Below are positions 3,960 to 42,091 of a DNA stretch of 42,780 nt, piece by piece. The notes under the pieces were generated by a model. The model searched no databases and was not told where the DNA came from. It worked only from the letters and a program-made list of their open reading frames with translations. Location of the stretch: positions 1-42,780 of the IMG/VR virus record IMGVR_UViG_3300025575_000025, one strand, 5' to 3'. Numbering within the stretch: the stretch's first letter is position 1; every line of letters starts with the position of its first letter. A program made the translations under genes and the position numbers. Source of the stretch: a virus (taxonomy: Duplodnaviria > Caudoviricetes).

Positions 3960-4424
3960 AATAAAAAATCCTCCTTATTATAAAATAGGAGAGAGTAGGA
4001 ATTTAAAACTAGAACGTCCTCAAAGGATTTTAGTCCTTCGATTTTGTTATATGCAAAACTCATCCTACATAGTTTTTCTAATAATAATTTCTTTTTACTC
4101 ATCTGAGCCAAAAATAACTACCCATATGGGCAAAATTTACTTTAAAATGCAGTTTTTATCTAGGCTATCACTGCAAAACCTATTCAGTATGTTATATCCA
4201 TGAGAAATTATATGATTAACTTTACAGTCTCACACAATTTTTATTCTCATGTCGCAAGAGGATTACCCTCTTTAAGTCAAAAAATTAGTTGGACTTACAC
4301 TTTTTAATAATTAGTGCCACATCGAATATTAAAACTGCCAACTAAAAATAGAGAGGAGGGAGAAAAATATAAGAAAGGAGGGAGAAGAATCAATAATAAT
4401 AAGATTTATCCCTCCATGAAGTGA

Positions 4425-6763: not shown

Positions 6764-9388
6764 CTACGTTGTAGCATTTTTCTGTTTACGAGAATTATTA
6801 TATCTAATCCGTTGAATTTGTCTATCTTTTTCCAATTTAATGGACTTCGCACAAGATAAGCAGTACTTTATATTGTTATTGGTTTGTTCAATTCTAGTTC
6901 CACAACTTTCACAAAGCATATTTCCGTCATTCAAACTCATTTTGATATTGCTCTTCATGTTCTCAACAACTACATCCCCAAAGCACTCCCAAAATGTAGT
7001 TTTAAAGTTAGATTTTTTATGTGCATACAGATATTCAATTAAAATATCCACAACATAATTTACGTCACCATTGATTTCTAGTATCTGACTTCTAATGTCC
7101 TTATACAAGTAAACCCTATTGCCAATCTCATCATCTGATATTTTATTAATCATAAAGTGATTTTTTAAATCTAATTCTGTATACTTTTTTATAATTACAT
7201 CATCTAATTCAGTTTTCTTCTTATTCATAAGCATTTTATAATTGAATTTACCTAGATTCATTGCATTAAAATTAATATTAGGGTTAGGAATCATTTTTTC
7301 AAGTTTATTCACTACACTATTGTTTACTTTTTCACATTTGTCTTTTTCTTTATCCTTGGCATACACAAAGAAGTGAGGAGTCTTTGATTTAGTATAACTA
7401 TTGATCAATGTTTTTTGTGCTTTTGGTCTTTCAGGTTTATATAGAGTTTTGGCAAAATCAATAGTAAAATTATTTTCCATACATAGAAGTTTAACTACAT
7501 CAAGATTAACATTTCCACTGTTCCATATCTTTGTGATGTTATTACTAACTGTTCCAATGTTCCCTCCTGTATATGCCGTTTTTAATCCATTATAGATACT
7601 ATGATTAGTAATCAATTCTGCATCTGCTTTTCTCATATTGTAGTACAAAGGAACAATACCCTCCATGTTACGCTCTGCAACTGAAATTGCTGTGTGGTCT
7701 GCCACTACCAAACTCTTATCGCCATCAACATCATACTGAAGAATCTTTGAGATTAAATCATGACAGGAAGCGTATAACCCCTTAGTAGTAAACCACTTAC
7801 CTTTTTCACTATCAATTACATTATTTCGGACAGCGTGTTCCAAAAAAAGATGAGGTGATCTTAGACAATCTAATTTAGGTTCATTTTTATATAGACTACA
7901 ATATACATCTCCATCTTTAATTAGTCCCTTTGGGTTTAAGTCTCCTAGTATCAAGTACTCACAAAATGCATATAAGTCTGGGATGATAAATGTATATTTC
8001 CCATTGATACCTAGTTTCCCAGCCCTTGCATTTTTAACCATACTCTTTTTAACTTGTTTCAATATTTCTCTACTATATGTATCATTTAATAATTCTGGAT
8101 AAATCTCTAATGCTTGTTGTATGTAATTTTTGTTTATATTTGATTCAGTGACACCTAGAACTTTAAGCATTGTTTTTCTATCTCTACCAATATTAATAAT
8201 ATTACTTTTAGTCTGAGAGCAGATGGTTTCTAATTCTTCATCCTCCATATCTGTCAATGTCTGAAGCATCTGATAGTTTATCTTAGCATTTTTAAATATA
8301 TCTTCTTCTTCATTGCACATTCCAGCATGACAGTTATACTTTATGTAATTACTTATGTATTGCTCCCAATCCTCAAAATACTTATACATCTTGAATTGGC
8401 TTTTAGTAAAAATTATCTCAATTCCTTCTTTTAAAAGATCATGTGGCTTACCGTATATATCATTAACTACACCATATTTATTTCCTTCACTATTCTTATT
8501 TGCTTCTCTGATAAACTTGTCAAAAGCAAATGGTGTCAACAACCCCTTCACCCAAGGTAGTCTAACCATCATACTTTTCTTACTTACTTTTGGTAAGTAA
8601 ATTCCACATCCATCAGTATGACTAATTGGAATATCCATTTCCTTTCTAATAATCTCATATGTTTCATCGTCTATAAAATCAACTGTACCTCTAACCATAG
8701 TTTCAAAATCCTCAACTACAATTGACTTCCTAATATCAAATCCTTCCCATATAGACGTTGCCGAATTACAGAGGGCTAGATAAGCTAGATACTTGTTAAC
8801 GTTGACTCCCCCTAATTTATTAATCTCCTTTATGGTCAGACCGCACATTAATGTATTTTGATATTTCAGTAAAACACTTTCTTTAATGAAGACTGTTTTC
8901 TTTGTTCTGATCTGACCAGCACTAGCAGTTAGACAAACATATTTATCTTCTCCATACATAAATCCATCTATAATAATATCCTCAATTACATCAAAGAAAA
9001 ATGTTTGTACAATTAGAATATCTGTAGTCAATGTATCCTCTGGAATTTGCATTGTACGAGTTAAGACAGAATCAAAGACTGAAATTATGTTGCGTTTATT
9101 TAAGGACTCTGGATGCAAATTCCTTATGTCAGTATTTTTATTAAATTCTATGTATAATTTATCTTTTAATTTTTTAAGCATTTTATTAGCATTACTGATG
9201 TGTTTTGTGTAATATTCACCTAAAATTTCATCTTTTCCCTTTAATTTATCTCTTTTTTTATGTAGGTTTTGCTTGTATCTGTATAGTCTTCCTAAGTATT
9301 TATGTATCCTTGATTCCTCTTTATTATAGAAGGAGGATGTATCTACAGAATAAATATGAATTTGCTTGTTTAAATTTATAGTAATCAA
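6764..9388 (-). CDS. yonO: YonO-like single-subunit DNA-dependent RNA polymerase (RdRP-like double-psi barrel family)
   Basis: 874 aa; IYSVDT N-terminus, TASAGQIRTKK, TDGCG, RLPWVKG, RSPHL, catalytic DVDGD, IDFAKT; C-terminal CESC...CLSC. Confidence 0.92.
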   Translation of the reverse strand: MITINLNKQIHIYSVDTSSFYNKEESRIHKYLGRLYRYKQNLHKKRDKLKGKDEILGEYYTKHISNANKMLKKLKDKLYIEFNKNTDIRNLHPESLNKRNIISVFDSVLTRTMQIPEDTLTTDILIVQTFFFDVIEDIIIDGFMYGEDKYVCLTASAGQIRTKKTVFIKESVLLKYQNTLMCGLTIKEINKLGGVNVNKYLAYLALCNSATSIWEGFDIRKSIVVEDFETMVRGTVDFIDDETYEIIRKEMDIPISHTDGCGIYLPKVSKKSMMVRLPWVKGLLTPFAFDKFIREANKNSEGNKYGVVNDIYGKPHDLLKEGIEIIFTKSQFKMYKYFEDWEQYISNYIKYNCHAGMCNEEEDIFKNAKINYQMLQTLTDMEDEELETICSQTKSNIINIGRDRKTMLKVLGVTESNINKNYIQQALEIYPELLNDTYSREILKQVKKSMVKNARAGKLGINGKYTFIIPDLYAFCEYLILGDLNPKGLIKDGDVYCSLYKNEPKLDCLRSPHLFLEHAVRNNVIDSEKGKWFTTKGLYASCHDLISKILQYDVDGDKSLVVADHTAISVAERNMEGIVPLYYNMRKADAELITNHSIYNGLKTAYTGGNIGTVSNNITKIWNSGNVNLDVVKLLCMENNFTIDFAKTLYKPERPKAQKTLINSYTKSKTPHFFVYAKDKEKDKCEKVNNSVVNKLEKMIPNPNINFNAMNLGKFNYKMLMNKKKTELDDVIIKKYTELDLKNHFMINKISDDEIGNRVYLYKDIRSQILEINGDVNYVVDILIEYLYAHKKSNFKTTFWECFGDVVVENMKSNIKMSLNDGNMLCESCGTRIEQTNNNIKYCLSCAKSIKLEKDRQIQRIRYNNSRKQKNATT

Positions 9389-13439: not shown

Positions 13440-14859
13440 TTTATTATCTCCTTTTTATTATTATTTATATGATTTAGCATTTTTATATGTTAAATGGAAA
13501 ATGAAACGTGCATGGTTGCTAGGTTTCAGGGGTTTACTCGTAAAGGAAAGACTTACTACCCTATAAGATAATTTTTATATATAATATGTATAAAGAATGA
13601 GGAACGACGAAGCTTTTCTGAAACAAAACATTTCCGCATTCGCGTAAATATTTCTTATTCAGGATTTATATTTTTATTTTTTAATCCATAATTAATTACC
13701 TCCAATCAAATTTATAAAATAGTTTATAAATAATTATACCATATTTTTGTTTTAAATGCAAATATAATTATATTTAATTAGTATAAAATTTATTATAGTT
13801 GGAAATGATAGTTGATCTAAATTAATTTGCTCAAATTTAGAGGTGTCGTAGGGTAGGTATAATTGATTCGATGTTAGTGTAAAATATAGCCCCTTATAAT
13901 AGAAGGAAGATTTAAAAGTGGTTTGATATTGGGATGGAATGTAGGAGTAACAATGGTTTGGAGGATGTTATGATTGTGTTTTATTATTAATCTTAGCTGA
14001 TTTATTATGGATTTATTTGATATTGTTGTTGAGTGTAAAATGTGTTCGGTAGAAGTGTAAATATAGAGATGTTTTTGTTTGTTTTTATTATTGCCAGAGG
14101 GAATTAATTATTATTGTATTGGGCTGAAAGCATTATGGATAGTGAGTTTAGAGGATGTTTTGTTAGGAGAGGATTAGTAGTTAGAATTATATTTGTTATG
14201 TGAGAGAGTATGGATTTTATTTATTTTAGTGATGATTATTGTTTTTATATTTATGTGAAAGTGTTGGTAGTAGTGGGTTTTATCGAAGAGTGAGCGAAGG
14301 GAAAATAGTGTTTATTTAGATTTTGTTTGGAATTTATTTTTATTTTAGTATTGACATTTTTATTTTATTATGTAAAGTGTTTCGATGTTCGATTATAATT
14401 TGAGTGTGTGAGTTGATGTACTGTGGGGATATCCTACGGAATACGAAGGACTTTCAATGTAAACTATGCCCCGGTTATGGATATTAATTATATTATGATC
14501 ATTATATAAATGATATGTATTATCAGTTAGACATAGAATCCCTGCATCATATCAGACTAAAACCCTAGAACCCGCCTATAGATTGATTCCTGATTCTATT
14601 TGAGTGTTACAAAAGATAGTTCTGTTACACTCATCATGTTTAGATGGTTATATTAGTACCTTTTATCAATTCTGAGGGCATACAGAGCATATCAAAGACA
14701 AATTTCATAGGGTCGCTGCTATTGGGTAAACTTTGATAAAATCATGCTATTTTGATTTTAAAATTTTACTATGATCATGATTTGATTTTAAAATTTTGCT
14801 TTTTTGTTTGGGCCTCTAATCGGTCGATTTGTATAACATGAAAAATATATACGAACTAT

Positions 14860-15506: not shown

Positions 15507-15535
15507 TGTACAAATTATATTACATTTGTTATAAT
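15507..15535 (+). promoter_or_regulatory. sigma-A type promoter
   Basis: TGTACA-17-TATAAT with extended TG. Confidence 0.6.
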
Positions 15536-15565
15536 AGAGATAGTTAATAAAGGAGGTTTTCAACT

Positions 15566-17831: not shown

Positions 17832-18170
17832 AGCTTCCTTTTTCTTTATCCCTCCAAACCCTTGTTTTATCGTATTATGTGAATCCTGAAAGCCTGTTAT
17901 ATGGCTATTCTTGAAAAGTGTAAATTAAAAATAATCACCCGGAAAGAATAATTAATTATATGTATTAAATATTCCGGGGCGTAGTAACACATGTAAAATA
18001 ATTATTTTTAAAAACTATTGCATTGCTAAAATTTTTATGATAAAATTAAATGACGACTTATTTGAGTTAATAATTTGTCGTAATTTAGTTACAGTAATAT
18101 AATAAAATACTATTGCAATATGTTTTCAGTGTGCTATAATGATATCAAGAAGTAAAACAAAAGGAAGTGC

Positions 18171-19158: not shown

Positions 19159-19445
19159 TGGGGGAGGAGTATGAATCTTTGAGTTTTTTAAACGCCCATA
19201 CAATAAATTTTCAGGGCTTTAGAAAATATAGACTAGATAAATAATATCTAGTCTTTCTCTATACCCTCTTATAATCCCTTTACACGCTCCAGAACGCCTT
19301 CTAAGCCCTCAGAACTCTAAAAGCATACAATTCTACCCTAAACTATTTCATACAATTCAAATGCCCATTTTAAAGGATTATTGGAGGGTTAGAAGTGGCT
19401 TATAGCTTGATTTTTGAAAAGTCAATTCGTGTAAAATAATAAATG

Positions 19446-19955: not shown

Positions 19956-20128
19956 CCCCATACGTTAAAACCTATATTTGGTGGTATAGGCCGATTAAAT
20001 TTATTAGGGCGCGAATGATAACTTAAGGCCGTAAATACTTTCAATAAATAATATTACAACACTTGACATATAATAAGTAATCGGTTAATATGTATATATC
20101 AGGTAAAACAAAAAAGGAGTGAACGCAA

Positions 20129-21206: not shown

Positions 21207-21348
21207 AATTAATCTAGTCTTTTCTCTTATCCCATCAAAAAGACATTTTAAAGTGCGACATACAAGTATTATAATGGTGAATTAGTAGACGCTTTATGGG
21301 TTGTAATAAAAAAATATTATTATAGCAACGGAAAGGAGAAAAATTTAA

Positions 21349-22493: not shown

Positions 22494-22883
22494 GAAAATG
22501 AAATAGGGATTTTAAAGACTAGAAATTATAACCTAGTCTTTTTCTTTACCCAATTTTAATAATGATCATGATTTAACCATCATAAAGCAAAACACCTGCC
22601 ACAAAAACAGCCCTCTAAGCTCTTTAAACCCTATAACCTTTATATTCTTACATTGAATACCTTTCTAATGGAGCACAGACAATACTGATATTTATTTATA
22701 CAATTGTAATATAATCTATTTACATTATTAAAATTTTTTGCTATAATGGGGTGATGGCATTTTTGAATTTGTTGTGGTAAAAATAAACAGTAACTATAAT
22801 ATAATAAAGTGTTGACAAACGCTCAGAAATCTATATAATAAGAAGTAGTTAAAGAATACATAAAATGAAAGAAGGAATTTTAA

Positions 22884-24929: not shown

Positions 24930-24942
24930 AGGAGTTAAGAAC

Positions 24943-28575: not shown

Positions 28576-28821
28576 ATGGATAAAATTGAAATCATGAAAG
28601 AAGCGTTGGAGAAGATAGCATACGCAGAAGATGTTTTTGATATGAATGGGAAAAATGATTATGATTTATTTGAAAAGTGTATGTTTATTGCGCAAGAGGC
28701 ACTAAGTAAAGTTATAGAAAATTATTGCTTAATGGATGACTGTGAGTATAATTTAAATAATCAATGCTCTATTGGCTTTGACGTTACCAGTATAATAAAT
28801 TGTTCTTTTAAAAGTAAATAA
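28576..28821 (+). CDS. hypothetical protein
   Basis: AAGGGG RBS; C-terminal C..DCEYN....C. Confidence 0.7.
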   Translation: MDKIEIMKEALEKIAYAEDVFDMNGKNDYDLFEKCMFIAQEALSKVIENYCLMDDCEYNLNNQCSIGFDVTSIINCSFKSK

Positions 28822-29030
28822 GTTATCCTTAAATCAATGAAATTTATTAATCCAATAAAAGGGAAATTTCATGCTAGTTTGGTGCTAGGGAATTGGAGTA
28901 AATGGAAGCATGAGTGAGTATGAGAGATGTGCATATTTCTTGTTTTATTAAAATGTAATATAATATATTAATGGTTGACATATTTAACGGATTAGTATAA
29001 TATATTATATAAGAGGTAAAACAAAAGGAG

Positions 29031-31159: not shown

Positions 31160-31306
31160 GGGCTTAAAAAGTCCTTTTCCTTTTGTTTGAAATCCACTTA
31201 AAATGTTTGTTTGAATCTATGGAATTAATTTAATAAGTACTTGCATAACCCTCTGATGACTTTAATATAATATAGTATGTATTAAATAAATTGGAGGGTT
31301 TAAAGT

Positions 31307-31747: not shown

Positions 31748-32425
31748 ATGAAGGAGAAAGCACCAAAAGGCTTCTCAAAGCAATGCAAAGAATGTCAGAC
31801 TTGGAATGTTAAAAATTCTATTGAATGCACTGAATGCGGAGCTGAATTAAAAACTTCAGATGGTATGCAGTTTGTTCAACCAATCAAAAACATGGTTAAA
31901 GTCGAAGAGATGAAAGTATATCTTAAATCTAAAAGTCTTAGGAATTGGGCGTTATTCACTTTAGGGATTAATAGTGCATTGAGAATATCTGATCTATTAG
32001 TACTCAAAGTTAGTGATGTAGTAGATGAAAAGGGTCATATCCGAGATAGAATAAAAGTTAAAGAAATCAAAACTAGTAAGACAAAAACATTCCCATTTTC
32101 AGCAAAGGTAACAGATGCACTTTCAATTTATATTGCTTCAGAGAACCCTACAGATGCATTGTTTCCATCAAGGCAAGGTAGTGAAGCAATAACCCGGATT
32201 CAATGTCACAGGCTCTTAAAGGGTGTAGCATTAGAAGTTGGTATTGAAGATAATATTTCGACCCATTCCATGAGAAAAACGTGGGCATACCAAGCTTACA
32301 TGAAAGGAGTCCCATTAATTCAAATTATGGACGCTCTGAACCATTCAAGTGAAGATATGACAAAAAGATATCTAGGAATCACTCAGGCAGCACTGGATGA
32401 AGTTTATATGTCAATGGATTTGTAA
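31748..32425 (+). CDS. tyrosine recombinase (catalytic-domain type) with N-terminal zinc ribbon
   Basis: Intact R (ALRISD), K (EIKTSK), HxxR (HSMRK), H (LNHSS), Y (TKRYLG); CKEC..CTEC N-terminus; RBS AAGGAG favours ATG 31748 over TTG 31739. Confidence 0.92.
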   Translation: MKEKAPKGFSKQCKECQTWNVKNSIECTECGAELKTSDGMQFVQPIKNMVKVEEMKVYLKSKSLRNWALFTLGINSALRISDLLVLKVSDVVDEKGHIRDRIKVKEIKTSKTKTFPFSAKVTDALSIYIASENPTDALFPSRQGSEAITRIQCHRLLKGVALEVGIEDNISTHSMRKTWAYQAYMKGVPLIQIMDALNHSSEDMTKRYLGITQAALDEVYMSMDL

Positions 32426-32474
32426 TACTTCGAAATAAAAGTTTCATCGTAGTGGGATAAAATGAAAAAGGAGC

Positions 32475-32726
32475 GTGTTAATTATGAAAGAATTTGCTTA
32501 TCGTGTTATTACAGAGGACGAATTATTTGTTGCTGTGGGGTTAGATGAATTACTTTCTAAGTATAAACAAGTGGGAACTGGAATAGTAAAACAACTGAAC
32601 GCTGAATTAATAGGTCAGCCAACATTAGAAGGTTTATTAGGGCCATTCTGCGATGGAATGGTAGGAGATTTACCAGTGATCAGATATGAAAGCCAAAAGG
32701 TTTATGATTACTTTATTTCTCAGTAA
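32475..32726 (+). CDS. hypothetical protein
   Basis: AAGGAG RBS; likely ATG 32484. Confidence 0.75.
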   Translation: MLIMKEFAYRVITEDELFVAVGLDELLSKYKQVGTGIVKQLNAELIGQPTLEGLLGPFCDGMVGDLPVIRYESQKVYDYFISQ

Positions 32727-32749
32727 AATGATGTTGGGGAGAAATAATT

Positions 32750-32965
32750 ATGGCGATTATAAAAATAAGACGTGGTAATGCATTATTAAATAGAGATGTA
32801 TTTATTACTGACAAAGATTCATCTTACTTTAAACAATGGTTAACGATAAAAAGATTTGATGGGGAGTTTTATTTCACGGAAGAATTAGATGACCCTGAAA
32901 TTACGCCGATGTTTGATTTAAGTCAGTTCACATGTCCTAGATATCAATTTAGATGGAGAAAGTAA
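32750..32965 (+). CDS. hypothetical protein
   Basis: GGGGAG RBS. Confidence 0.7.
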   Translation: MAIIKIRRGNALLNRDVFITDKDSSYFKQWLTIKRFDGEFYFTEELDDPEITPMFDLSQFTCPRYQFRWRK

Positions 32966-32986
32966 TTATGAAAAGGAAGGAGTATT

Positions 32987-33193
32987 ATGATGGATAAGAA
33001 ATATATTATAAAAGTTGATGCTATCAATGACGATATGATTCTAATGTTACTTGATTTTGGGACTGTAGACCATGTATCAGAGAACAATAATATTTGTAGA
33101 ATTACTATGGACTCAAGAAATGTTAAGAAACTTAAACAATGTGATGGCGTATTATCTGTGAGAGAAAGTCAATTAGGTAAATGGTTAGGTTGA
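32987..33193 (+). CDS. hypothetical protein
   Basis: AAGGAG RBS. Confidence 0.7.
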   Translation: MMDKKYIIKVDAINDDMILMLLDFGTVDHVSENNNICRITMDSRNVKKLKQCDGVLSVRESQLGKWLG

Positions 33194-33238
33194 TATGACG
33201 TAGATTAAAATGCTGATTTGATGCTATGATTATAGAGT

Positions 33239-33658
33239 ATGAAGGAGGATGAATTAATAATGTTTACAATACCTAAACATGGGTGGACTAACTTGCAAAT
33301 TGGTGATTTTACAGAGAGGGCAAGTTATTTAACAGATATTCCGAATGATTGTTTAGATGCTTTTACATATGCTCTAAAAAATAATAAACCTGTAGTAGTT
33401 TTCTTTGATGCTGAAGGTTGGGATTTTCATTTGATTGCATCATATTATCAAAGTTATATTATTATAGATAAAGATGATACGAAGGTGTATGTAATTGAAA
33501 AGAATATCAAAGAACTTGCTAAAGAACTTTATAATGACATCAATAATAATTTTGATGGTTGGTTAAATTGGGATTTCTATGATACTGTTGAAGAAAGAGA
33601 GGAAAATAAAATAAATATAATGACAAAATTATCTCAATTAAATATGGAATTAATTTAA
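33239..33658 (+). CDS. hypothetical protein
   Basis: RBS AAGGAGG suggests true start ATG 33260; flanked by junction sites 33206 and 33661. Confidence 0.8.
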   Translation: MKEDELIMFTIPKHGWTNLQIGDFTERASYLTDIPNDCLDAFTYALKNNKPVVVFFDAEGWDFHLIASYYQSYIIIDKDDTKVYVIEKNIKELAKELYNDINNNFDGWLNWDFYDTVEEREENKINIMTKLSQLNMELI

Positions 33659-33693
33659 CATAAAAGGATTCTTTCGAAGGGAGAGGTGATAAT

Positions 33694-33858
33694 ATGATAT
33701 TTGTTGATATAGATGAATGTCAAAAAGGGATTTGTGAATGCGGAACTTTTACATATAGAAGAGTTATTGTGGGAGAAAATTCATTTTACTTATGTAACAA
33801 ATGCACAGAAACATTAATAACTACATTGAAATTAGAGGAGCAGATTTTCAACCTATAA
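33694..33858 (+). CDS. 54-aa zinc-finger protein
   Basis: Not in track; GAGGTG RBS; CECG...LCNKC; stop overlaps junction site 33856. Confidence 0.65.
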   Translation: MIFVDIDECQKGICECGTFTYRRVIVGENSFYLCNKCTETLITTLKLEEQIFNL

Positions 33859-33901
33859 ATCAGTTCTTTCGAAGGTATTGAAGTAAAGGGAGGTAAGATA
33901 A

Positions 33902-34063
33902 TTGGCTGTCATGACTAGCCGTGTTAAAGAATACTGGAGATTCTATATTGATTGCGCTTTAGGATTTTATAAAAGAGTTGGGTTTTCTTGTGATGGACAA
34001 AATTTATTCCAATATGCAAACAGTTGTGTTCGAAAAGATATTAGGTACAGAAAAAGAATTTAA
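33902..34063 (+). CDS. 53-aa hypothetical protein
   Basis: Not in track; GGGAGGT RBS, TTG start; stop overlaps degenerate site 34061. Confidence 0.6.
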   Translation: MAVMTSRVKEYWRFYIDCALGFYKRVGFSCDGQNLFQYANSCVRKDIRYRKRI

Positions 34064-34092
34064 AATAACAGATTCTAATTAATATATAATAT

Positions 34093-34899
34093 ATGAAAGG
34101 TAGGATTAAACATTTGATTATATTTGATGCAGATGATAAAATAGTGAAGTCAAAAGAAGGAGCAGTTATGGTAACTAGTATATTAAAACAAGATAAATTC
34201 CATAAAGAAGATTATACTGTCAAAGAATGTACATTAGAAGAAGCAAGAGATGTTTGCAAAAACAAGCATTATTTACATAGAGTGCCTAGTATTGTCGCAC
34301 ATTATGGATTATATAAAGAAGAATTATTGTTAGGAGTAATTACTTTTGGAGTTCCACCAAGTCCTTACTTAATGAAAATCTGTGGAGAAGAATATAAAGG
34401 TGCTGTGCTTGAGTTAAATAGACTATGGTGCTATGATATCTCACCTAGAAATTCAGAGAGCTTCTTGATATCACAAGGGATTAAACTACTTAAAAAAGAT
34501 AAACCACATATTAAGATATTAGTTTCTTTTGCTGATTCAAGAGAAGATCATTTAGGATACATATATCAAGCGTCAAATTGGTTCTTTACTGGATGGTCAA
34601 TACCCGGAGGTGGAAGTATTGTAATCAATGGCAAAGAATTTCATCCTAAGAATTTAAACAACAAATACAATACAAGTGACTTGAATAAGTTAAAAGTTAT
34701 TTTAAAAACAGAAGATATTCATTATAGGCCACGAAGTAAAAAATTAAGGTATGTTTATTTTATAGGAAGTAAGAAAGAGAATAAAGAATTAAAGGTACTT
34801 TGTAAATATCCAATTCAAGATACATATCCAAAGGAATTACCAGCAGAGAAAGAATATAAGACGCAACAGCAAAAACGATTAGACAAAGAGGCTAATTAA
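34093..34899 (+). CDS. Mom-like (GNAT-fold) DNA modification enzyme
   Basis: HYLHR, LGVITFG.P, LELNRLW, NSESFLIS..IKLL, LVSFAD....HLGYIYQASNW.FTG, K.RY.YF motifs of the Mu Mom family. Confidence 0.8.
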   Translation: MKGRIKHLIIFDADDKIVKSKEGAVMVTSILKQDKFHKEDYTVKECTLEEARDVCKNKHYLHRVPSIVAHYGLYKEELLLGVITFGVPPSPYLMKICGEEYKGAVLELNRLWCYDISPRNSESFLISQGIKLLKKDKPHIKILVSFADSREDHLGYIYQASNWFFTGWSIPGGGSIVINGKEFHPKNLNNKYNTSDLNKLKVILKTEDIHYRPRSKKLRYVYFIGSKKENKELKVLCKYPIQDTYPKELPAEKEYKTQQQKRLDKEAN

Positions 34900-34969
34900 T
34901 ATAGGGAGTTTACTCTCCCTTAGTTTGCTAATAAATATACTAATTATAAATAATCTATATTAAATTTAA

Positions 34970-35293
34970 TTGAAGGAGTTAAACAATTTGAACATTAATA
35001 TTAAATCCAAAGAGAGTCAATCAATATTTAGATGCTACAGAAAGATATTAGGTAAGACATATCAATGCAGTTTCTATTTGGATTATACCGAATACATGAT
35101 GAAAATTAGGAGACTTGCGTTAGTAAAATCTGTGTCAGTTAATGTGGGAGATTACTGGTATAAGAATGAAGACAATAAATTTCCTATGGGGATTATAGTT
35201 AAAGGTATTGCTGTAAATAAAGGGGTGGTAAGGATCATTAGAGTATTTTGTTTTAGGTATTCTTTTGATATTGGATGGCTATTTAAGAAGTAG
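34970..35293 (+). CDS. hypothetical protein
   Basis: 107 aa ORF; AAGGAG RBS suggests TTG ~34988. Confidence 0.6.
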   Translation: MKELNNLNINIKSKESQSIFRCYRKILGKTYQCSFYLDYTEYMMKIRRLALVKSVSVNVGDYWYKNEDNKFPMGIIVKGIAVNKGVVRIIRVFCFRYSFDIGWLFKK

Positions 35294-35409
35294 TAGGAAC
35301 GATAAAAATCATATTTTATCCTAATTTGAGGAGGTGATGAAAAACGGTATGACATAAATAATACTACTTTTCAACAATAAGTTAATAATATTTGAGAGGA
35401 ACGTGTTTA

Positions 35410-36294
35410 ATGGAATTATATGAGTTAAGGCAAAAACAATCAATGCCACTAGAACAAAAAATAATTATGACACAACAAAGAATTAAAGAATGGCACGATC
35501 ACTGGGATGGAGAAATATACATAAGCTTTTCTGGAGGAAAGGATAGTACTGTTTTATTACATATAGCAAGATTAATTTTTCCTGAAATTACTGCTGTCTT
35601 TGTAGATACTGGATTAGAGTATCCAGAAATAAGAAGATTTGTAAAAACTATAGAAAATGTGGTATGGATTAAACCAAAGATGAATTTTAAAGAAGTTTTA
35701 GATAAATATGGATATCCTATTATTAGTAAAGAACAATCTGGGTGGATACATGATAGTTGCACTGGGAAAACAGAAAAACAAAAGCTAAGAATATTAAAGG
35801 TTAGTAAGAAATGGCAGTATCTAAAAGACGCACCATTTAAGATTAGTGATAAATGTTGCCAGATCATAAAGAAAGATCCAATGAAAAAATATGAAAAAGA
35901 AACAGGACAAAAAGGAATTTTGGGAAATCTAGCAAGCGAAGGCATGGCAAGAGAAAGAAACTATCTTAAAACTGGTTGTAATGCTTTTGAGAGCAAGAGG
36001 CCATTATCTATGCCATTAGGGTTTTGGACGGATAATGATATTCTAGAATATTTAATTACATATAATATTCCGTATTCAAGTATATACGGAGAAATCGTAG
36101 TTAGTGAGGGACTATATCAAACTACAGGTGAAAAGAGAACTGGTTGCATATTCTGTATGTATGGGGTACATTTGGAGAAGGGAGAAAATAGATTCCAGAG
36201 ATTAAAAAACTCTCATCCCAAATTGTACAACTACTGTATTGAAAACTTGGAATTAGGGAAGGTGCTTGATTATATCCATGTAAAATACGATTAA
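35410..36294 (+). CDS. PAPS-reductase-family (PP-loop) protein
   Basis: ISFSGGKDSTVL PP-loop, VDTGLEYPE, KCC..IKK.P, PLGFWT..D, RTGCIFC; RBS favours ATG 35410. Confidence 0.88.
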   Translation: MELYELRQKQSMPLEQKIIMTQQRIKEWHDHWDGEIYISFSGGKDSTVLLHIARLIFPEITAVFVDTGLEYPEIRRFVKTIENVVWIKPKMNFKEVLDKYGYPIISKEQSGWIHDSCTGKTEKQKLRILKVSKKWQYLKDAPFKISDKCCQIIKKDPMKKYEKETGQKGILGNLASEGMARERNYLKTGCNAFESKRPLSMPLGFWTDNDILEYLITYNIPYSSIYGEIVVSEGLYQTTGEKRTGCIFCMYGVHLEKGENRFQRLKNSHPKLYNYCIENLELGKVLDYIHVKYD

Positions 36295-36303
36295 ATATGT
36301 ATC

Positions 36304-36354
36304 TAATATAACTAAGTTTAGGAAGATTTACGTCTCCTAAACTTAGTTATATTA
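36304..36354. repeat. perfect 20-bp inverted repeat with 11-nt loop
   Basis: TAATATAACTAAGTTTAGGA / TCCTAAACTTAGTTATATTA. Confidence 0.8.
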
Positions 36355-36368
36355 CTGTAAAATAATAT

Positions 36369-36397
36369 TTGACAAATGTAAGTTATGTGGCTATAAT
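36369..36397 (+). promoter_or_regulatory. consensus sigma-A promoter preceded by TGTAAAATAAT (36356-36366)
   Basis: TTGACA-17-TATAAT. Confidence 0.8.
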
Positions 36398-36433
36398 AAT
36401 AAGTAGATAAAACATTTTAAGGAGTGATCTCAG

Positions 36434-36799
36434 ATGCAATCATTTAAAGCCTACTTGACCAAAAGCCTAAAAGAAATGAAAAGTCTTATAATTGATGATG
36501 ACCTTGACTCAGACACATATGCTCACTACCATGTTATCTATAAAGATAAGACTGGAATTATGTTTAGTGACTCAGAAGGAATTGACCCAAAACTTATTAA
36601 ACTTAGAAATATTGCATTTATCGAAATACATACTGGTGATGACTGGTCAGATAATGTAAATGAATATATTGATATTGAATATGCGGATATGACATCAGAA
36701 GAAATACACGAATTCGATAAAAATAGAGAAGCAAAAATTAATGAATATCTTAAAAATGAATATGGCTTCACAATGGAAAGAGTAGATTATTTAAACTAA
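36434..36799 (+). CDS. acidic hypothetical protein
   Basis: AAGGAGTG RBS, 121 aa. Confidence 0.8.
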   Translation: MQSFKAYLTKSLKEMKSLIIDDDLDSDTYAHYHVIYKDKTGIMFSDSEGIDPKLIKLRNIAFIEIHTGDDWSDNVNEYIDIEYADMTSEEIHEFDKNREAKINEYLKNEYGFTMERVDYLN

Positions 36800-36956
36800 G
36801 CAAAGTATATTAAATAAACTACCATGAAATTGCACTTTTATATGCCTCAGCAGATAGGGTAGTAAATGGGAGCAATCAAGAGCATAATGAAGCATTAGGG
36901 ACGTAAAATACGCAAAATAACCCAAAGAGAAAATATCTCCTTGGGTTATAAACATA

Positions 36957-37292
36957 TTAAATAATATTGCGTCCTTTTAGGTTAGTAATATTCTCATACT
37001 GAATGATCATATTTTCACCAACAAAGTTTTTATGATCCTTAATAATTTCCTCTATGCCTAAGTAATGTAAAAGGAAAGTATTATCAAATCCAGCATCATC
37101 ACTTTGGGATCTTAATTTACCTACTATAATCACTGCTCTTTTCAGCGTTAAAAATCCTCTGCACTCAGGCCCAAAGGTATTATAAGAAATATAAGCATTT
37201 AACCCTCTGTCAATTTCCTTGATGCCACTAGCATAATGACCATTACCATCTAAAATAACCCACATGTTTCTTGACTCTTTTTTCTTATACAT
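36957..37292 (-). CDS. hypothetical protein (only well-supported minus-strand gene in right arm)
   Basis: GAGGAG RBS; hairpin TAACCCAA/TTGGGTTA at ~36918-36948 after the stop. Confidence 0.65.
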   Translation of the reverse strand: MYKKKESRNMWVILDGNGHYASGIKEIDRGLNAYISYNTFGPECRGFLTLKRAVIIVGKLRSQSDDAGFDNTFLLHYLGIEEIIKDHKNFVGENMIIQYENITNLKGRNII

Positions 37293-37882
37293 TTCTTTCT
37301 TCTCCTCTTTTACTCCTCAGAGAAGGAATGTTTGGAAGAATATGCATACATTCTCATCTTCTAATTTGAGATGATATAGTGTATACTACTATTGTAAGAT
37401 AGGTTTCCAAACGCTTCCTTTTGAGGGAGCTTTCTTTTTGCCCTTAAATAAATTGTACGCCTCACAATCATGTCACTTAATTTTTTATTTACAAGCACAC
37501 TTTCATTCTTGCTTATAAATTACAATTTTAAACATCTTTATTAAATTATTATTCACCTCCTATATGTAGTACAATACATATTTAACCACACTATATGTTG
37601 GGGGTCAAACCCCTTTGTTGTCTGTATTCTGAATTGTTTACCTCCCTAGTCCTATTCTTGCCAACTATCTCCCTCTTCCTTGTTTATAGAAATTATCTCT
37701 ATTTCAATAGTAGGATGACTTCGTATATTTGTCAAACAAAAGGCATACCTTTACAAATTAATTACACATAAGTCCTAGTACCTTTCAAACAATTGAATAA
37801 TAATAAATAATATTTAATTAACTATTGCATTTGGGATTAGGTTTTGATATAATATATTTAGCAGGAAATTGAAGGAGGAAAG

Positions 37883-38203
37883 ATGAGAAGTATTGAATGG
37901 CAAAACACGAGAAATGCTAACTACATCTACATTCACCAAAGGATATCAAATGTTTCTCCCGGAATCGTAAGTAAATTATCCTACAATGAAAATTCAAGAG
38001 CACTTATAGGATTCTCTGAAGATCGAAGATATCTATACATCAAGAAATCAGATAATGGATTAAAATTGAGTATCGTCAACAAGAGAAGTTATGGTAGAAC
38101 ATTTTGCTCTATAACACTTGTGAAACGATTTGGTGAAGAGATTATGGGTACATATGAATTTGACAGCTTAGACGAGGGAACAGTAGTGTTAAAAAGAGTA
38201 TAG
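37883..38203 (+). CDS. hypothetical protein
   Basis: TTGCAT-17-TATAAT promoter (37825-37853); AAGGAGG RBS. Confidence 0.8.
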   Translation: MRSIEWQNTRNANYIYIHQRISNVSPGIVSKLSYNENSRALIGFSEDRRYLYIKKSDNGLKLSIVNKRSYGRTFCSITLVKRFGEEIMGTYEFDSLDEGTVVLKRV

Positions 38204-38215
38204 GAGAGTGTTTAA

Positions 38216-38347
38216 ATGTCAAAGGAACAACAAACTATTATTAAGGAACTGCTAAAAGTAATCAGTGATTCACAGTCTTGTGAGGGAATGCCATATTCAA
38301 CGAGTAGAGAATTAACATCGCTTGTAAGACAACTAGAGGTGGCTTAG
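38216..38347 (+). CDS. 43-aa hypothetical peptide
   Basis: Not in track; AGGAG RBS; fills gap between neighbours. Confidence 0.55.
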   Translation: MSKEQQTIIKELLKVISDSQSCEGMPYSTSRELTSLVRQLEVA

Positions 38348-38348
38348 A

Positions 38349-38690
38349 ATGAAGAGAATATACAAATATGAATTAACTCCATGTAATGATGGATATGTTG
38401 ATAGCATATCCTTACCAATAAGTACAAAGGTATTATCTGTGATTGGACAAGAAAATTCAATCTACTTATATGCTTTGGTAGATACAGAAGATACTCTTGA
38501 AAAACAAGTTAACTATAAAATATATGCAACAGGGCAAGAAGTTGACGATTATGTGTTGGATGATTTTAATAGTTATGTATTTTTAGGAACTGTAACATTA
38601 TATAATTCTAGGTTAGTATTCCATGTTTACCTTGATAATTATAATACCAAGATAAAAAATGCGATTTATGGGAATAGGTATTTTTATTGA
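38349..38690 (+). CDS. conserved phage hypothetical protein
   Basis: MKRIYKYEL..I.LP...VLSV..Q...LYALVD..ATG..LGTV..LVFHV pattern seen widely in phages. Confidence 0.8.
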   Translation: MKRIYKYELTPCNDGYVDSISLPISTKVLSVIGQENSIYLYALVDTEDTLEKQVNYKIYATGQEVDDYVLDDFNSYVFLGTVTLYNSRLVFHVYLDNYNTKIKNAIYGNRYFY

Positions 38691-38784
38691 CTCTTTTGCA
38701 TAGGATAAAGTATAAATAATATTTATTATGCTATTGCAATTCAATTAGATTAATGGTAAAATAAGTTAAGGAATTGAGGAGGCT

Positions 38785-39015
38785 TTGGATATGAAATTTC
38801 TTGACAGTATTGATATGGAAATAGAATACTCAAATGCAAAACCCTTCAGTGTTGATATGTGGTACAATAGATCAGTTAAATCATGGGTAGTTCAAATAAA
38901 AGACGAAGAGAATTGCCAAATTGGAGATTCAGTTTATGTTTACTCAAAACCAGAAGCGATACATCAGGTTGAATGGTGGACAGAAAAGTATAATATACCA
39001 CTCATAAGGACATGA
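38785..39015 (+). CDS. hypothetical protein
   Basis: TTGCAA-17-TAAAAT promoter; GAGGAGG RBS (likely ATG 38791). Confidence 0.75.
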   Translation: MDMKFLDSIDMEIEYSNAKPFSVDMWYNRSVKSWVVQIKDEENCQIGDSVYVYSKPEAIHQVEWWTEKYNIPLIRT

Positions 39016-39032
39016 AAGAGGAAGGTGAAAAA

Positions 39033-39221
39033 ATGAATTTAATTATTAAAAATGCTGACGATGTAATTATTCAAAAAAGCAATGGTATAAGTATTCCACA
39101 ACAGATAGCATATACAAGTGTAGATGATTTGTTTATAGAGGGAGTGGAATATTGTATTTTTAGAAAAACATTTAATACACAAGATAATGAATTAGAAATT
39201 ATTGTTGATAAAGCAGAATAA
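39033..39221 (+). CDS. hypothetical protein
   Basis: RBS GGAAGGTG before ATG 39033; stop overlaps site 39219. Confidence 0.7.
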   Translation: MNLIIKNADDVIIQKSNGISIPQQIAYTSVDDLFIEGVEYCIFRKTFNTQDNELEIIVDKAE

Positions 39222-39255
39222 AACGTGAATTTGAATGGAGGAGGATGTATTTATA

Positions 39256-39522
39256 ATGGCTAATTATTTTAAAGGTGCGGATAACTTGCTCCTACAAGAG
39301 TATTTTGAATTGAAGGTAAAACTTAGTGAATTGCAAGTAACGAGAGGATATTGTAGTAGGATCTTTCATAATACAGATGGTATAGATAAAGAAATTAGAG
39401 AAACGGAAATAAGTATAGTTGAGACAATAAGTATGTTTGATTTGTTCCAATTGACGCAAATTATCCATATGGGTTTAAATATTGACTATGATGGATTAGT
39501 AGAAGAAGGAGCTATACATTAA
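39256..39522 (+). CDS. hypothetical protein (cassette)
   Basis: GGAGGAGG RBS right after site 39219; stop overlaps site 39520. Confidence 0.75.
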   Translation: MANYFKGADNLLLQEYFELKVKLSELQVTRGYCSRIFHNTDGIDKEIRETEISIVETISMFDLFQLTQIIHMGLNIDYDGLVEEGAIH

Positions 39523-39559
39523 AAATGTGGTTTTAATGTGTAGAAAAGGAGAGATACAT

Positions 39560-39721
39560 ATGAATGTAGAATATGTTTTTAAACATAGAGTAGACAAGGA
39601 TACCCAGTACAAGAGTTTTATAATGCAAGAAGTGGAGGATGGAGATGCTAAAAGTTATATTGCTAGTATGAACTTAGACGGCTATGATTTAATAGAAAGA
39701 AATTACTTTGAGAGGGCTTAA
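39560..39721 (+). CDS. hypothetical protein (cassette)
   Basis: AAGGAG RBS; stop overlaps site 39719. Confidence 0.7.
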   Translation: MNVEYVFKHRVDKDTQYKSFIMQEVEDGDAKSYIASMNLDGYDLIERNYFERA

Positions 39722-39749
39722 AATCAAGATTTGAACGGAGGTTAGAATT

Positions 39750-39929
39750 ATGTTCAATGTAATGGAGAAAAAGAATCCTAGACCCACATTTCGTAGTGAT
39801 ATAGTAGTTAAAACCGTATATGCGGTATTAGAAGATAGTAGTGGGTTCCCAAAGTTTCTATTCTATGAAGACGGACAATGGATTTACCACTCTGCTAAAC
39901 TCTATGAACCATACGGTATTTATGATTAA
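39750..39929 (+). CDS. 59-aa hypothetical protein (cassette)
   Basis: Not in track; GGAGGT RBS right after site 39719; ..TVYAVLEDSSGFPKFLFYEDGQW.. Confidence 0.7.
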   Translation: MFNVMEKKNPRPTFRSDIVVKTVYAVLEDSSGFPKFLFYEDGQWIYHSAKLYEPYGIYD

Positions 39930-40001
39930 CCAATCTTTACATTTAATCGTATTAATGCAATCTAATGTAAACAATAAATAATATAATTGGAGTGATCACA
40001 T

Positions 40002-40193
40002 ATGGCAAAAGCAACTGTTAGTATTGAAATATGTCCAAATTGTGGTAGTAAACATGTTAATAAATTAGACTGGAGTGGCTATTTTTGCATGGACTGTGAT
40101 TGTGAAATAGACAAGAATGGTAAATTATTTAGTATTACATATGCAGGAGAATTGGTAGATTATGAAGTCAATGAATTTGCTAATATTAATTAG
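40002..40193 (+). CDS. zinc-ribbon protein
   Basis: CPNCGS...YFCMDC. Confidence 0.75.
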   Translation: MAKATVSIEICPNCGSKHVNKLDWSGYFCMDCDCEIDKNGKLFSITYAGELVDYEVNEFANIN

Positions 40194-40208
40194 GAAGGAG
40201 GGAATAAT

Positions 40209-40388
40209 ATGAATATTTTATTGATGAATAAGAATGATGATGTTGTTGCAACGTATTTGCCTAATCATAGTGACTTTGAACAGGGTGACGTTGTTAGTAT
40301 TTTTGGCAAGGATAGTGAGGTTTTAGAAATTGAAAAGTATACTAAATTAGGTGCTGGAGAGCATGTTACTTTAGTGTTGGTTAAATAG
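40209..40388 (+). CDS. 59-aa hypothetical protein
   Basis: Not in track; AAGGAGGG RBS. Confidence 0.65.
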   Translation: MNILLMNKNDDVVATYLPNHSDFEQGDVVSIFGKDSEVLEIEKYTKLGAGEHVTLVLVK

Positions 40389-40408
40389 GAAGGAGATATA
40401 AAATACAT

Positions 40409-40702
40409 ATGTTTTTTATTACTGGAATTGAGAAATTAGATAAGGATTTTGGAATAGACGGATCAAGATGTTTTGGTTATAAGGAAACATTTAAGGAAGC
40501 AGATCAATCGGTAAGAGAAAATTGTTGTGATATTAATGAAACAATTTATGATTTTGTTGTGATTGAATTTATTGAATCTGGATTACACCAAACTTGTTTA
40601 GCAAAAAGATGGTTTTATATGTTTAATTATATTTTTGGGATTTATGAGCAGATTGAAGAGCCTGTAGAGGTTAAAGGATTTTGTAATTTCTCTATTGGAT
40701 AA
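40409..40702 (+). CDS. hypothetical protein
   Basis: AAGGAG RBS, 97 aa. Confidence 0.8.
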   Translation: MFFITGIEKLDKDFGIDGSRCFGYKETFKEADQSVRENCCDINETIYDFVVIEFIESGLHQTCLAKRWFYMFNYIFGIYEQIEEPVEVKGFCNFSIG

Positions 40703-40763
40703 GCCCATTCAATCAAGTATTTCGAAGGATTAATTACAAATAAAAATAAAGGAGTTTTAACAA

Positions 40764-41201
40764 GTGAATACTTTAGAAATGGCAATTGAATTAAGGAAGA
40801 ATCCAGAGTTAAAAGCAAACTGTGTTGTTGGCGATAAATTATGGAAAGTAAAATGCGTTAATGGTAGTATAATGTGGGATGATAATAGAGAATCAAAATT
40901 CCTTGATATGAGTGATTGTTTACTAAACCATAATAATTGGAACGTGTATAAAGAAGAAAAGAAAAAAGTAGATGTATTTCATCGGTTGAACATTTCACTT
41001 AAAAATGGTATTGGGGAATTACCTCATGATAAAAATATTATTGGTGATATTCACGTACTAACTTTAGATGGGAAATTACATACAATTAGACCAATTGGGA
41101 AAATATTCGCAGTTCCTACAGATGACGAGGAAGTTAATGTAATGTTTAAATATGAAGTTATGGGCTGTTGTTGTACTTTTTATGCTAATGATTTCTGTTG
41201 A
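40764..41201 (+). CDS. hypothetical protein (cassette)
   Basis: AAGGAG RBS; between sites 40709 and 41199. Confidence 0.75.
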   Translation: MNTLEMAIELRKNPELKANCVVGDKLWKVKCVNGSIMWDDNRESKFLDMSDCLLNHNNWNVYKEEKKKVDVFHRLNISLKNGIGELPHDKNIIGDIHVLTLDGKLHTIRPIGKIFAVPTDDEEVNVMFKYEVMGCCCTFYANDFC

Positions 41202-41237
41202 AATAAATATTTTAACGGGTAGGAAAGGAGTTGTTAC

Positions 41238-41444
41238 ATGGGATCATTTTTCTTAATATTTGTTCTTCCACAACTTATAGCATGGTTATTAGCATGGAAA
41301 CGTATTTTAAAACCAATAGCTATATTGACTTTCATTCTAGGAGTTGCGTTTTATAAATTAACTGGTGGATACATAGATGTATTAATCATAAGTATGGAGT
41401 TGGCATTTGTAGGATTGGGATATGAAATGATTAAATCGGCTTAA
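41238..41444 (+). CDS. small membrane protein (about 3 TM)
   Basis: Highly hydrophobic 68 aa; AAGGAG RBS. Confidence 0.75.
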   Translation: MGSFFLIFVLPQLIAWLLAWKRILKPIAILTFILGVAFYKLTGGYIDVLIISMELAFVGLGYEMIKSA

Positions 41445-41481
41445 ATGGATTATAAATAATCAAACCATATAAACTCCAAAT

Positions 41482-41724
41482 TTGATGGGAATAGAAAAGG
41501 AAGTGAAACTAATGACATTTAATGAGGTATGGACAAAAGGTGAGGGTCTTTTTTCAAGTAAACCTATACTCAAAAGAGTAGCAAGGCAGAAATGGATTGA
41601 TGAATTCAACATTAAATGGGTGCAGTTTAACAAAGGTATTATGGTTTATAAATGGAATGACGATAGCTTTGAAAAATATGACCATAGCGAAGACAAAGAA
41701 GATGATTGGGTAGAACTAACATGA
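41482..41724 (+). CDS. hypothetical protein (cassette)
   Basis: True start likely ATG 41512; stop overlaps site 41722. Confidence 0.7.
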   Translation: MMGIEKEVKLMTFNEVWTKGEGLFSSKPILKRVARQKWIDEFNIKWVQFNKGIMVYKWNDDSFEKYDHSEDKEDDWVELT

Positions 41725-41756
41725 ATGAGCCGTTTTAACGTGAGAGGAGGTAAACC

Positions 41757-41927
41757 ATGTTTGAGATTGAAAATGTCCATGAATGTAATCCTAGGAAAAT
41801 AGGATACAATGATCCTCTAGTTGTTGTACAAAAAATTGATGGAGAATGGCAAATCTTATTGAAAGACGGGATTGGAATCAGTGCGCTAATTAGTTATTGT
41901 CCTTTTTGTGGATGTATCTTAGATTAA
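41757..41927 (+). CDS. 56-aa protein with C-terminal YCPFCG motif (cassette)
   Basis: Not in track; GAGGAGGT RBS right after site 41722; stop overlaps site 41925. Confidence 0.7.
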   Translation: MFEIENVHECNPRKIGYNDPLVVVQKIDGEWQILLKDGIGISALISYCPFCGCILD

Positions 41928-42091
41928 ATGTATGATTTTAATCTAAGATTGTGTAATAAAAGGAGTAAAATAAGGACAAATAGTGCTTGAATTACAAAAT
42001 AAAGTAGGCTATAATAACTAATAGATAATATTTTATGTATAAAGGACAAAATAACTGACATACTATATCACATAAGGAATAAACAGAAGGA

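Follow-up and report, generated by a model that had tools for sequence, protein, structure and literature searches.

In engineered cassette exchange with heterospecific lox or FRT sites, the identity of the spacer sets which sites pair, and incompatible asymmetric spacers avoid deletion and inversion. In integrons, the attC core motif reads RYYYAAC...GTTRRRY and belongs to a long hairpin. The element studied here is a short site with two inverted arms around a 6-base-pair (bp) spacer, also called its centre, which recurs in IMGVR_UViG_3300025575_000025. This is a stretch of 42,780 nucleotides (nt) of viral DNA (Duplodnaviria; Caudoviricetes), which was analysed as a whole and is referred to as the window. 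The initial annotation read a run of these sites behind a tyrosine recombinase gene as an integron-like system for the capture and shuffling of accessory genes. The sites were found to be a real feature that differs from the proposed integron and fits spacer-matched, site-specific exchange, with loss or gain from one site to its neighbour as a rarer event.

The nearest described system is that of the pdif modules of Acinetobacter plasmids, in which plasmids recombine with one another at xrs/pdif sites only when the central regions are closely related, without excision (PMC11705084). The pdif sites resemble ours in having two arms, a variable 6-bp centre and flanking accessory genes, and their 11-6-11 layout is also present here. 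They have unlike centres within a molecule and need like centres between molecules, and two such steps amount to gene exchange (PMC11705084). In contrast, pdif sites have distinct arms for the host XerC and XerD proteins and a core of ATAA-N6-TTAT, whereas our sites have symmetric arms and a core of AAA-N6-TTT. The pdif sites are also mostly inverted and few per plasmid (PMC11705084), whereas 30-65 sites in a fixed order are found per phage genome.

The nearest phage case is that of the PeSLs of T4-type phages, which are also repeated intergenic elements where non-essential genes come, go and change (PMC2839356). The PeSLs are promoter/terminator cassettes that recombine mutually and form mini-circles, whereas ours are sites of 18-28 bp with unique, ordered centres (PMC2839356). 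SPBRE/Phi3TRE is a repeated intergenic motif from the same phage family, bound by the recombinase-fold protein MrpR (YopR, SroF). It differs in being another motif, read by a monomer and phage-specific, with nine ChAP peaks in SPbeta (PMC10516654; 10.1101/2025.11.27.690993). SPbeta contains 33-39 of our sites and has spacers in common with phi3T and phi3Ts. The sites did not match the MrpR/SroF box, as the phi3T box is a different motif.

Tn916 and Tn1549 share with the phage sites A/T-tract arms around approximately 6 nt (PMC5871717). Tn1549 targets have the polarity TTTT-n6-AAAA, with crossovers of 5-7 nt and no need for homology (PMC5871717); this polarity is opposite to ours, and the phage sites are fixed at 6 nt and retain their spacer.

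The inverted arms, asymmetric spacer and spacer identity at junctions of lox/FRT exchange are all found in the phage sites. The differences are that lox/FRT pairs are engineered, as opposed to a natural set of dozens, and that the phage arms are shorter and degenerate. Integrons are similar in their runs of small, often promoterless open reading frames (ORFs) between repeated sites near a tyrosine recombinase. The phage sites differ from them in having neither attC cores nor long hairpins, no recombinase match at the level of IntI, no reordering and a genome-wide distribution. A scan for attC core pairs 30-130 nt apart gave 0 on either strand of 32400-42000. Our motif is described in none of the available passages of PMC10516654, 10.1101/2020.05.06.055103, 10.1101/2021.11.22.469490, PMC11984713, 10.1101/2025.11.27.690993, PMC8138268 and PMC8270828. 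No published account was found in the literature searched by titles and abstract openings, which leaves its absence from print unproven.

Geometry and junction context of the sites

The element has the symmetric 18-mer form WTNAAW-N6-WTTNAW, and its outer arms, which are weaker, extend it to 11-6-11 overall. It had been described as a 17-bp palindrome, TNAAW-N6-TTTNAW; the inverted arms and the 6-nt spacer held, and the 17-bp form gave way to the longer, symmetric one. The geometry is that of a tyrosine-recombinase core site, as the initial annotation had recognized. All 20 copies it listed were recovered with the same letters. The first begins 5 nt past the recombinase stop codon (32425), and the seven copies said to include the upstream stop codon in the left arm do so (offset -2).

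Using a matrix trained on sites of related phages only, a site was found at 21 of the 58 plus-strand stop junctions of the window and at 15 of the 26 within 32400-41940. In 300 stop-preserving shuffles of the downstream DNA, the 58 junctions gave a mean of 0.5 (maximum 3) and the 26 junctions a mean of 0.25 (maximum 2), which bears out the junction enrichment that had been expected. The spacing is specific as well. At 70 window junctions only gap 6 was enriched, with 19 matches versus 0-4 for gaps 2-5 and 7-11, and a de-duplicated set of 1341 junctions, from loci identified by way of the recombinase, gave 171 matches at gap 6 versus 28-60 at other gaps. Gap 6 was not enriched (8 versus 10-19) where the loci were AT-rich and carried distant recombinase homologues (589 junctions).

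Most sites come after stop codons within apparent operons. The proposal of mostly promoterless units, each consisting of a site, a ribosome-binding site (RBS), one ORF and the next site, described 8 of the 13 intervals between the 14 array sites. The other five hold 2-6 ORFs; one of them includes a full sigma-70-type promoter match (12/12) at 36369-36397 and another contains a reverse-strand ORF. The sigma-70 scan as a whole was not above shuffled background (61 versus 66.9). In 10 of the 12 cases examined, an RBS-like word follows the right arm, at distances spanning 0-21 nt, where a closely following RBS had been described. The run does not start at the recombinase either, as further copies lie at 4142, 14691 and 19965. 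The sites are a genome-wide feature of SPbeta-like phages and not an array behind one integrase.

Spacers as addresses in related phages

Eight related phage records (66-227 kb) and the window contained 425 intergenic sites, 24-67 each, spread over accessory regions. The ORFs of the relatives were called by a custom script, whose errors the counts carry. L- and G-numbers denote the related loci and records compared with the window; many loci come from few metagenomes and are not independent. Within a genome, no spacer occurred twice (4.7 expected), no two were reverse complements (3.5 pairs expected) and none was palindromic (7.7 expected). Pairs with one mismatch were scarce within genomes (43 versus 74 +/- 10 expected). 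Since related genomes share a spacer vocabulary, these uniqueness counts are not independent. Among the 320 distinct pooled spacers, 0 were palindromic versus 5.9 expected, or approximately 4.4 after correcting for genome-wide palindrome avoidance.

Between genomes, the same spacers recur in the same order. Pairs of genomes had 310 spacers in common where 34 were expected, and 307 of these were collinear. Homology in the 60-nt flanks was found on neither side for 276 of the 310, on the left only for 24, on the right only for 8 and on both sides for 2. At 81 non-redundant, site-anchored loci, homology stops or starts at the site and the 6-bp centre is shared. One-sided pairs were picked by flank identity alone, which avoids circularity. 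In the clade of the window, the spacer was identical in 46 of the 61 pairs sharing only the left flank and in 26 of the 39 sharing only the right flank. In the right-only pairs, left-arm positions 1 and 3 agreed at 0.36 and 0.41 versus a background of 0.51 and 0.42, and the spacer bases agreed at 0.79-0.95. In one-sided pairs generally, agreement at the variable bases of the arm that faces non-homologous DNA drops to or near background. Arms at background next to a conserved spacer suggest that degenerate arms are tolerated and a changed centre is not. Identity ended between the last spacer base and the outer end of the right arm in 26 of 30 in-register, stop-anchored pairs.

SPbeta was meant as a negative control and gave 26 intergenic matches at gap 6 versus 2-6 at other gaps. 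The strict pattern WTAAAA-N6-TTTTAW was found 30-40 times per genome in eight Bacillus subtilis isolates versus 0-3 times at other gaps. A slightly looser pattern gave counts of 51 for Perkons and 37 for BUCT082, whereas the three distant YonO phages showed no gap-6 excess with it. Another 24 records were scanned, and 19 of them carried 11-70 sites versus 1-8 matches at gap 7; G028 and G029 were weak. In the eight isolates, all 748 shared spacers were collinear, and one duplicate spacer was seen among 315 sites. Slots between the same two addresses held up to seven unrelated alleles, with more than one allele in 21 of 37 slots. The spacer was identical in 68 of 74 Bacillus pairs sharing only the left flank and in 77 of 91 sharing only the right flank. 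Unique transitions from homology to non-homology fell on a site in 153 of 645 cases, versus 6.4 expected if uniform. In SPbeta, 37 of a total of 119 non-coding transitions were on sites, which make up 3% of the non-coding DNA.

Breakpoints of gene replacement in relatives thus fall on the sites, as had been predicted, and some modules were gained or lost exactly from site to site. Such events between unlike spacers were seen for TTGAAG-AGACTG in phi3Ts and SPbetaL4, TATCTC-GATCAA in Goe11, ACGATA-GTAATT in SPbetaL1, and CAGAGA-ACGATA. The unlike-spacer junctions traced in Bacillus link neighbouring addresses only. The Tn916-type tolerance of heterologous spacers in the initial annotation is not supported by these breakpoints, across which spacers are kept, unique per genome and collinear. 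Nor does its integron-like capture and shuffling agree with the shared order in 307 of 310 and 748 of 748 cases. From the comparison of sequences, which is the basis for the geometry, uniqueness and collinearity of the sites, the retention of spacers at breakpoints and the several alleles per slot, the sites likely act as labelled, map-ordered joints, each identified by its own 6-bp centre.

The array sites of the window are as follows, named by their spacers; no strand is assigned to any site.

32430..32447, site TAAAAG; spacer also in L066, where it is likewise followed by TGCTGA; flanks unrelated
33205..33222, site TGCTGA; spacer also in L066, flanks unrelated
33660..33677, site GGATTC
33855..33872, site CAGTTC; stop codon in left arm
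35302..35319, site ATCATA
36824..36841, site TTGCAC
39218..39235, site CGTGAA; stop codon in left arm; matched exactly, but out of order
39519..39536, site ATGTGG; stop codon in left arm; differs by one base from GTGTGG, which the relatives have as an address
39718..39735, site TCAAGA; stop codon in left arm
40708..40725, site CAAGTA
41198..41215, site TAAATA; stop codon in left arm
41469..41486, site TCCAAA
41721..41738, site GAGCCG; stop codon in left arm
41924..41941, site GTATGA

The remaining sites lie upstream of the recombinase gene.

4142..4159, further site TGCAGT, in a leftward-read region
14691..14708, further site GACAAA, in a long non-coding gap
17853..17870, site CCCTTG; common to G015/G016, flanks unrelated
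19356..19373, site TGCCCA; matched exactly 7 times in the pool, with unrelated flanks in each of the 4 matches shown
19965..19982, site CCTATA, new to this analysis; also in G008 and G011, in the same order
21234..21251, site AAGACA; matched exactly 8 times in the pool, with unrelated flanks in each of the 4 matches shown
22498..22515, site TAGGGA
28855..28872, site GGGAAA; retained in L074 together with its right flank, while the upstream ORF 28576-28821 is missing there
31198..31215, site TGTTTG, upstream of the recombinase; common to L074

The sites CCCTTG, TGCCCA, CCTATA and AAGACA keep their order between the window and relatives with unrelated flanks. In the matching region of the relatives, ATGTGG, and TAAATA or CAAGTA, are one base off addresses. 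The window sequence is present in two peat-metagenome runs, from which it may derive, and a contig in both joins the window match at 41919, 5 nt before the GTATGA site, with other DNA upstream. At the array coordinates, the reading of spacers as addresses draws on two sites, this contig start and analogy. One contig joint, 40387-40699, skips one ORF and ends 9 nt short of a site, and another, 28528-28849/28855, has a site at one end only. No site-to-site deletion joint was among the listed joints in the contigs of the two peat runs; contigs drop rare forms, so this is not evidence of absence.

Candidate enzymes and rival explanations

The recombinase gene that precedes the array is the following.

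31748..32425, plus strand, short tyrosine recombinase P0001, 225 amino acids (aa) (PF00589, E 3.7e-25); candidate enzyme only

The protein has an N-terminal CxxC..CxxC ribbon and a catalytic domain. It appears intact, as annotated, since R79, K108, H173, R176, H199 and Y208 are invariant across 35 homologues. Its score with the integron-integrase model TIGR02249 was 23.1 bits versus a cut-off of 265, and it fell far under the cut-offs of the IntI, XerC, XerD and XerS models. The family label YoeC-like comes from one source only (the name of P0044). Close homologues sit on phage contigs of 120-230 kb, and a recombinase of this type is the sole PF00589 match in the complete G003 and G007, both of which are records found through that gene. 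A link between the sites and this gene had been suggested; instead, the sites are genome-wide, unenriched beside the gene and present in complete phages that lack it. Integrons have attI and Pc beside the integrase gene; here a site begins 5 nt past the recombinase stop codon, and in 62 clade loci gap 6 near the recombinase gene gave 11 matches versus 2-9 for other gaps, and de novo 6-gap inverted repeats beside distant homologues showed no excess (8 versus 19-31 for other gaps). Nine of ten near-complete site-bearing records are without the window-type recombinase. Its absence from site-bearing phages, including SPbeta, rules it out as the required enzyme. It could serve this clade; SPbeta and others would need another enzyme, from phage or host.

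Other proteins were compared with the distribution of the sites. YomM was rejected as a universal enzyme, as it is missing from the complete G003, G007, G025 and G028 and broken in G027; it is present in the site-less G035/G036. YopR homologues are without the catalytic set in the alignment. YopQ, of the DndB family, is present in G001, G003-G005, G007-G009, G013, SPbeta, the eight Bacillus isolates, Perkons, BUCT082 and G043, and missing from five site-less records (G035, G036 and the three distant YonO phages). This co-occurrence may only mark lineage. The SPbeta gene yorG, for a Sak4-like annealing protein, has a homologue in one of the eight clade records.

We consider it somewhat probable that the sites are crossover points where a tyrosine-type recombinase joins co-resident phage genomes at like centres. 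With the recombinase bound to both arms, strands would be exchanged over the 6 bp of the centre, and this would succeed only if the site on the co-resident genome has a like centre. After two such crossovers, the whole stretch from one address to another would be replaced, in register, by the unrelated module of the partner. Because the centres of a genome are all different, never reverse complements and never palindromic, a genome would be safe from self-deletion and inversion. Rare reactions between unlike neighbouring sites would delete or add a module, and single-base drift would renew the spacer vocabulary; GGACGG, GGATGG and GGAAGG, which occupy one map region in relatives, could have arisen in this way. 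From the comparison we infer cleavage by a recombinase at the sites, a need for co-infection or a resident prophage, and the kind of enzyme acting. More tentatively, and with rather less confidence, the sites may make up an address system that spans the genome, with dozens of mutually incompatible sites in a set order served by a single recombinase activity, by which unrelated modules are swapped slot by slot without homology or RecA.

Several results weigh against spacer-matched exchange. A pool of 909 sites from 85 records contained no exact partner for 11 of the 14 array sites of the window. The third array match, CGTGAA, is out of order, and only 2 of the 14 listed sites were address-matched in a close relative. 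Palindromes of 6 bp are somewhat avoided genome-wide, at 0.71-0.81 of expectation, which weakens the argument from their absence in spacers. Gene ends break generally, as 1226 of 1254 site-less junction pairs also break; the evidence is therefore the position of the break and the retained spacer, not the break itself. The location of breakpoints at junctions was dropped as stand-alone evidence, as the stop-anchored control was equal. Of the 645 Bacillus transitions, 492 lie away from sites, and a module replacement between phi3T and phi3Ts does not end at sites. Four laboratory hybrids of phi3T and SPbeta have their crossovers either in long stretches of identity (1.4-18 kb), which usually include sites or end at them, or in short site-less stretches, such as one of 39 bp in Hyb3. 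These hybrids are uninformative on site-specific exchange. As for the enzyme, no single intact tyrosine recombinase family was common to all carriers tested. The window-type recombinase is missing from 11 of 11 Bacillus records, SPbeta, the complete G013 and the syntenic stretch of G012, and among 19 additional records rich in sites it was strongly matched in 1. In YomM and YopP of SPbeta, a K replaces the second catalytic R.

Another explanation is that the arms are kept as binding sites for a different job, as an operator, roadblock or organising site, and that crossover occurs through 16-26 bp of microhomology by annealing-type or host recombination. The binding protein could be, for example, YopQ/SroE, of which SroE is a second repressor of unclear role (10.1101/2025.11.27.690993). 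The absence of an active recombinase common to all carriers, the co-occurrence of YopQ with the sites in all records tested, and hybrids that look like the products of homologous recombination, also in 10.1101/2020.05.06.055103, all agree with it. So do the Bacillus arms, which are nearly invariant; like-spacer sites there share 16-18 bp, and plain microhomology could give the same outcome. In the clade of the window, though, arms differ while spacers match, leaving approximately 10 bp of perfect identity, and an annealing route has to face the near absence of the Sak4-like gene from the clade. YopQ may mark lineage only, and the known YopR/MrpR/SroF box is another motif that differs between phi3T and SPbeta, whereas the sites are shared. 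An operator role also leaves the scarcity of duplicate, reverse-complement and one-mismatch spacers unexplained, and most sites follow stop codons inside apparent operons. We regard this explanation as unlikely overall.

In the model of the initial annotation, single genes are cut out as circles by the adjacent recombinase and put back at any site, with unlike spacers tolerated; this model seems improbable to us. It would account for an intact recombinase with a site 5 nt downstream, for that type being the sole PF00589 match in G003 and G007, for the exact losses and gains between unlike spacers, and for one gene that lies to one side of TAAAAG in the window and to the other side in L066. The conserved order of the spacers counts against it, since this order would be lost under free reinsertion. 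The traced unlike-spacer junctions link neighbours only, no attC cores were found in 32400-42000, and the recombinase is missing from most carriers. Tn1549 targets have the opposite polarity, with crossovers of 5-7 nt (PMC5871717). The listed joints of the two peat runs, in contigs that drop rare forms, included no site-to-site joint. A reading of the sites as RNA hairpins for processing, attenuation or translational coupling is more doubtful still, and very improbable. Their position between a stop codon and the next RBS would suit such hairpins, and three of the 14 window copies have a predicted folding energy of -7 to -8 kcal/mol; the other 11 fold at -3.5 kcal/mol or weaker. In sets of 423 and 223 distinct sites, none of the 11 arm pairs covaried in a complementary manner (|z| <= 1.6 throughout), and this independent variation fits two protein half-sites. 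Two conserved copies inside yopP and yopR, and the ordered, unique centres, are not explained by hairpins either.

Spacer-matched exchange, if it takes place, would bear on how unrelated genes are exchanged at the same map position. This is a long-standing question that is usually answered by rare illegitimate joins or flanking homology. Here, roughly one in four of these exchange points is marked by a joint that can be named and counted. As SPbeta and phi3T carry the sites, and crosses, host mutants and marked genomes are all routine in them, the question can be tested directly. As the slots hold accessory genes, in the window those of the Mom family and with a PAPS-reductase domain, the system would shape the spread of such functions. 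It would amount to programmed phage sex with a natural library of orthogonal spacers, and if the enzyme were found, these dozens of naturally orthogonal spacers would be useful in genome engineering.

Cargo genes and further observations

The window represents part of the genome of a large, AT-rich phage and has many small ORFs. Its YonO-type RNA polymerase is 51% identical to SPbeta YonO, and it also encodes PhoH, Clp-protease, HU-like and MazF-like proteins.

6764..9388, minus strand, YonO-type RNA polymerase; places the window among SPbeta-like phages, context only
34093..34899, plus strand, Mom-family DNA-modification gene (PF25680, E 2.5e-43), cargo between sites CAGTTC and ATCATA
35392..36294, plus strand, PAPS-reductase-domain gene (PF01507, E 1.1e-21), cargo

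The last two genes lie in neighbouring slots (34093-36294). Both families are tied to DNA modification, and the pair is possibly anti-restriction. At 22884-28014, a 681-aa protein (phrog_27491, function not assigned) is followed by a 1023-aa fusion of an N6-methyltransferase and an SNF2 helicase. The fusion weakly resembles DarB-type antirestriction and MADS2 models, and the gene pair is missing from the related records compared. The region 13420-15566, where gene direction switches, has approximately 2.1 kb without a sizeable ORF and includes one site at 14691. Its strand skew is G-rich and then C-rich, and it may contain an origin or packaging region.

Other observations concern single sites and genes in related DNA. 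In a comparison of L119:10535 with L112:13418, CTTCGA agrees with CTTAGC in its left flank and opening three bases and with CTGCGA in its closing three, and is possibly a chimeric centre. A truncated copy of the window-type recombinase is present at L001:1622-1786 (G019), at another map position in a site-rich phage fragment. Six Enterococcus loci among L180-L189 have a distant homologue and one conserved matching site (AGAGGC) approximately 262 nt downstream of the recombinase, which may be chance or a single cognate site. In the Enterocloster phages PMBT24 (W14) and CB473P3 (W16), a near-palindrome, TTAAAA-N5-TTTTAA, has an almost fixed A/T centre; it occurs 9 times (W14) and 6 times (W16) among the matches listed and looks operator-like.

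In SPbeta (L304), two conserved sites, at 79649 and 82016, lie inside yopP and yopR, where a crossover would give chimeric repressor-module proteins. SPbetaL1 has a 121-bp duplication spanning the yopP site. The phi3T-type SroF box or a close variant abuts sites at 107396 and 120529 in phi3Ts and at 113663 and 132746 in SPbeta, so repressor boxes may travel with modules. The one "nonhomologous" junction, "following yosA", in 10.1101/2020.05.06.055103 may coincide with the site at SPbeta 116414. Finally, the reverse-strand, 111-aa ORF at 36957-37292 of the window has homologues directly upstream of yopQ in G003, G004 and G008.

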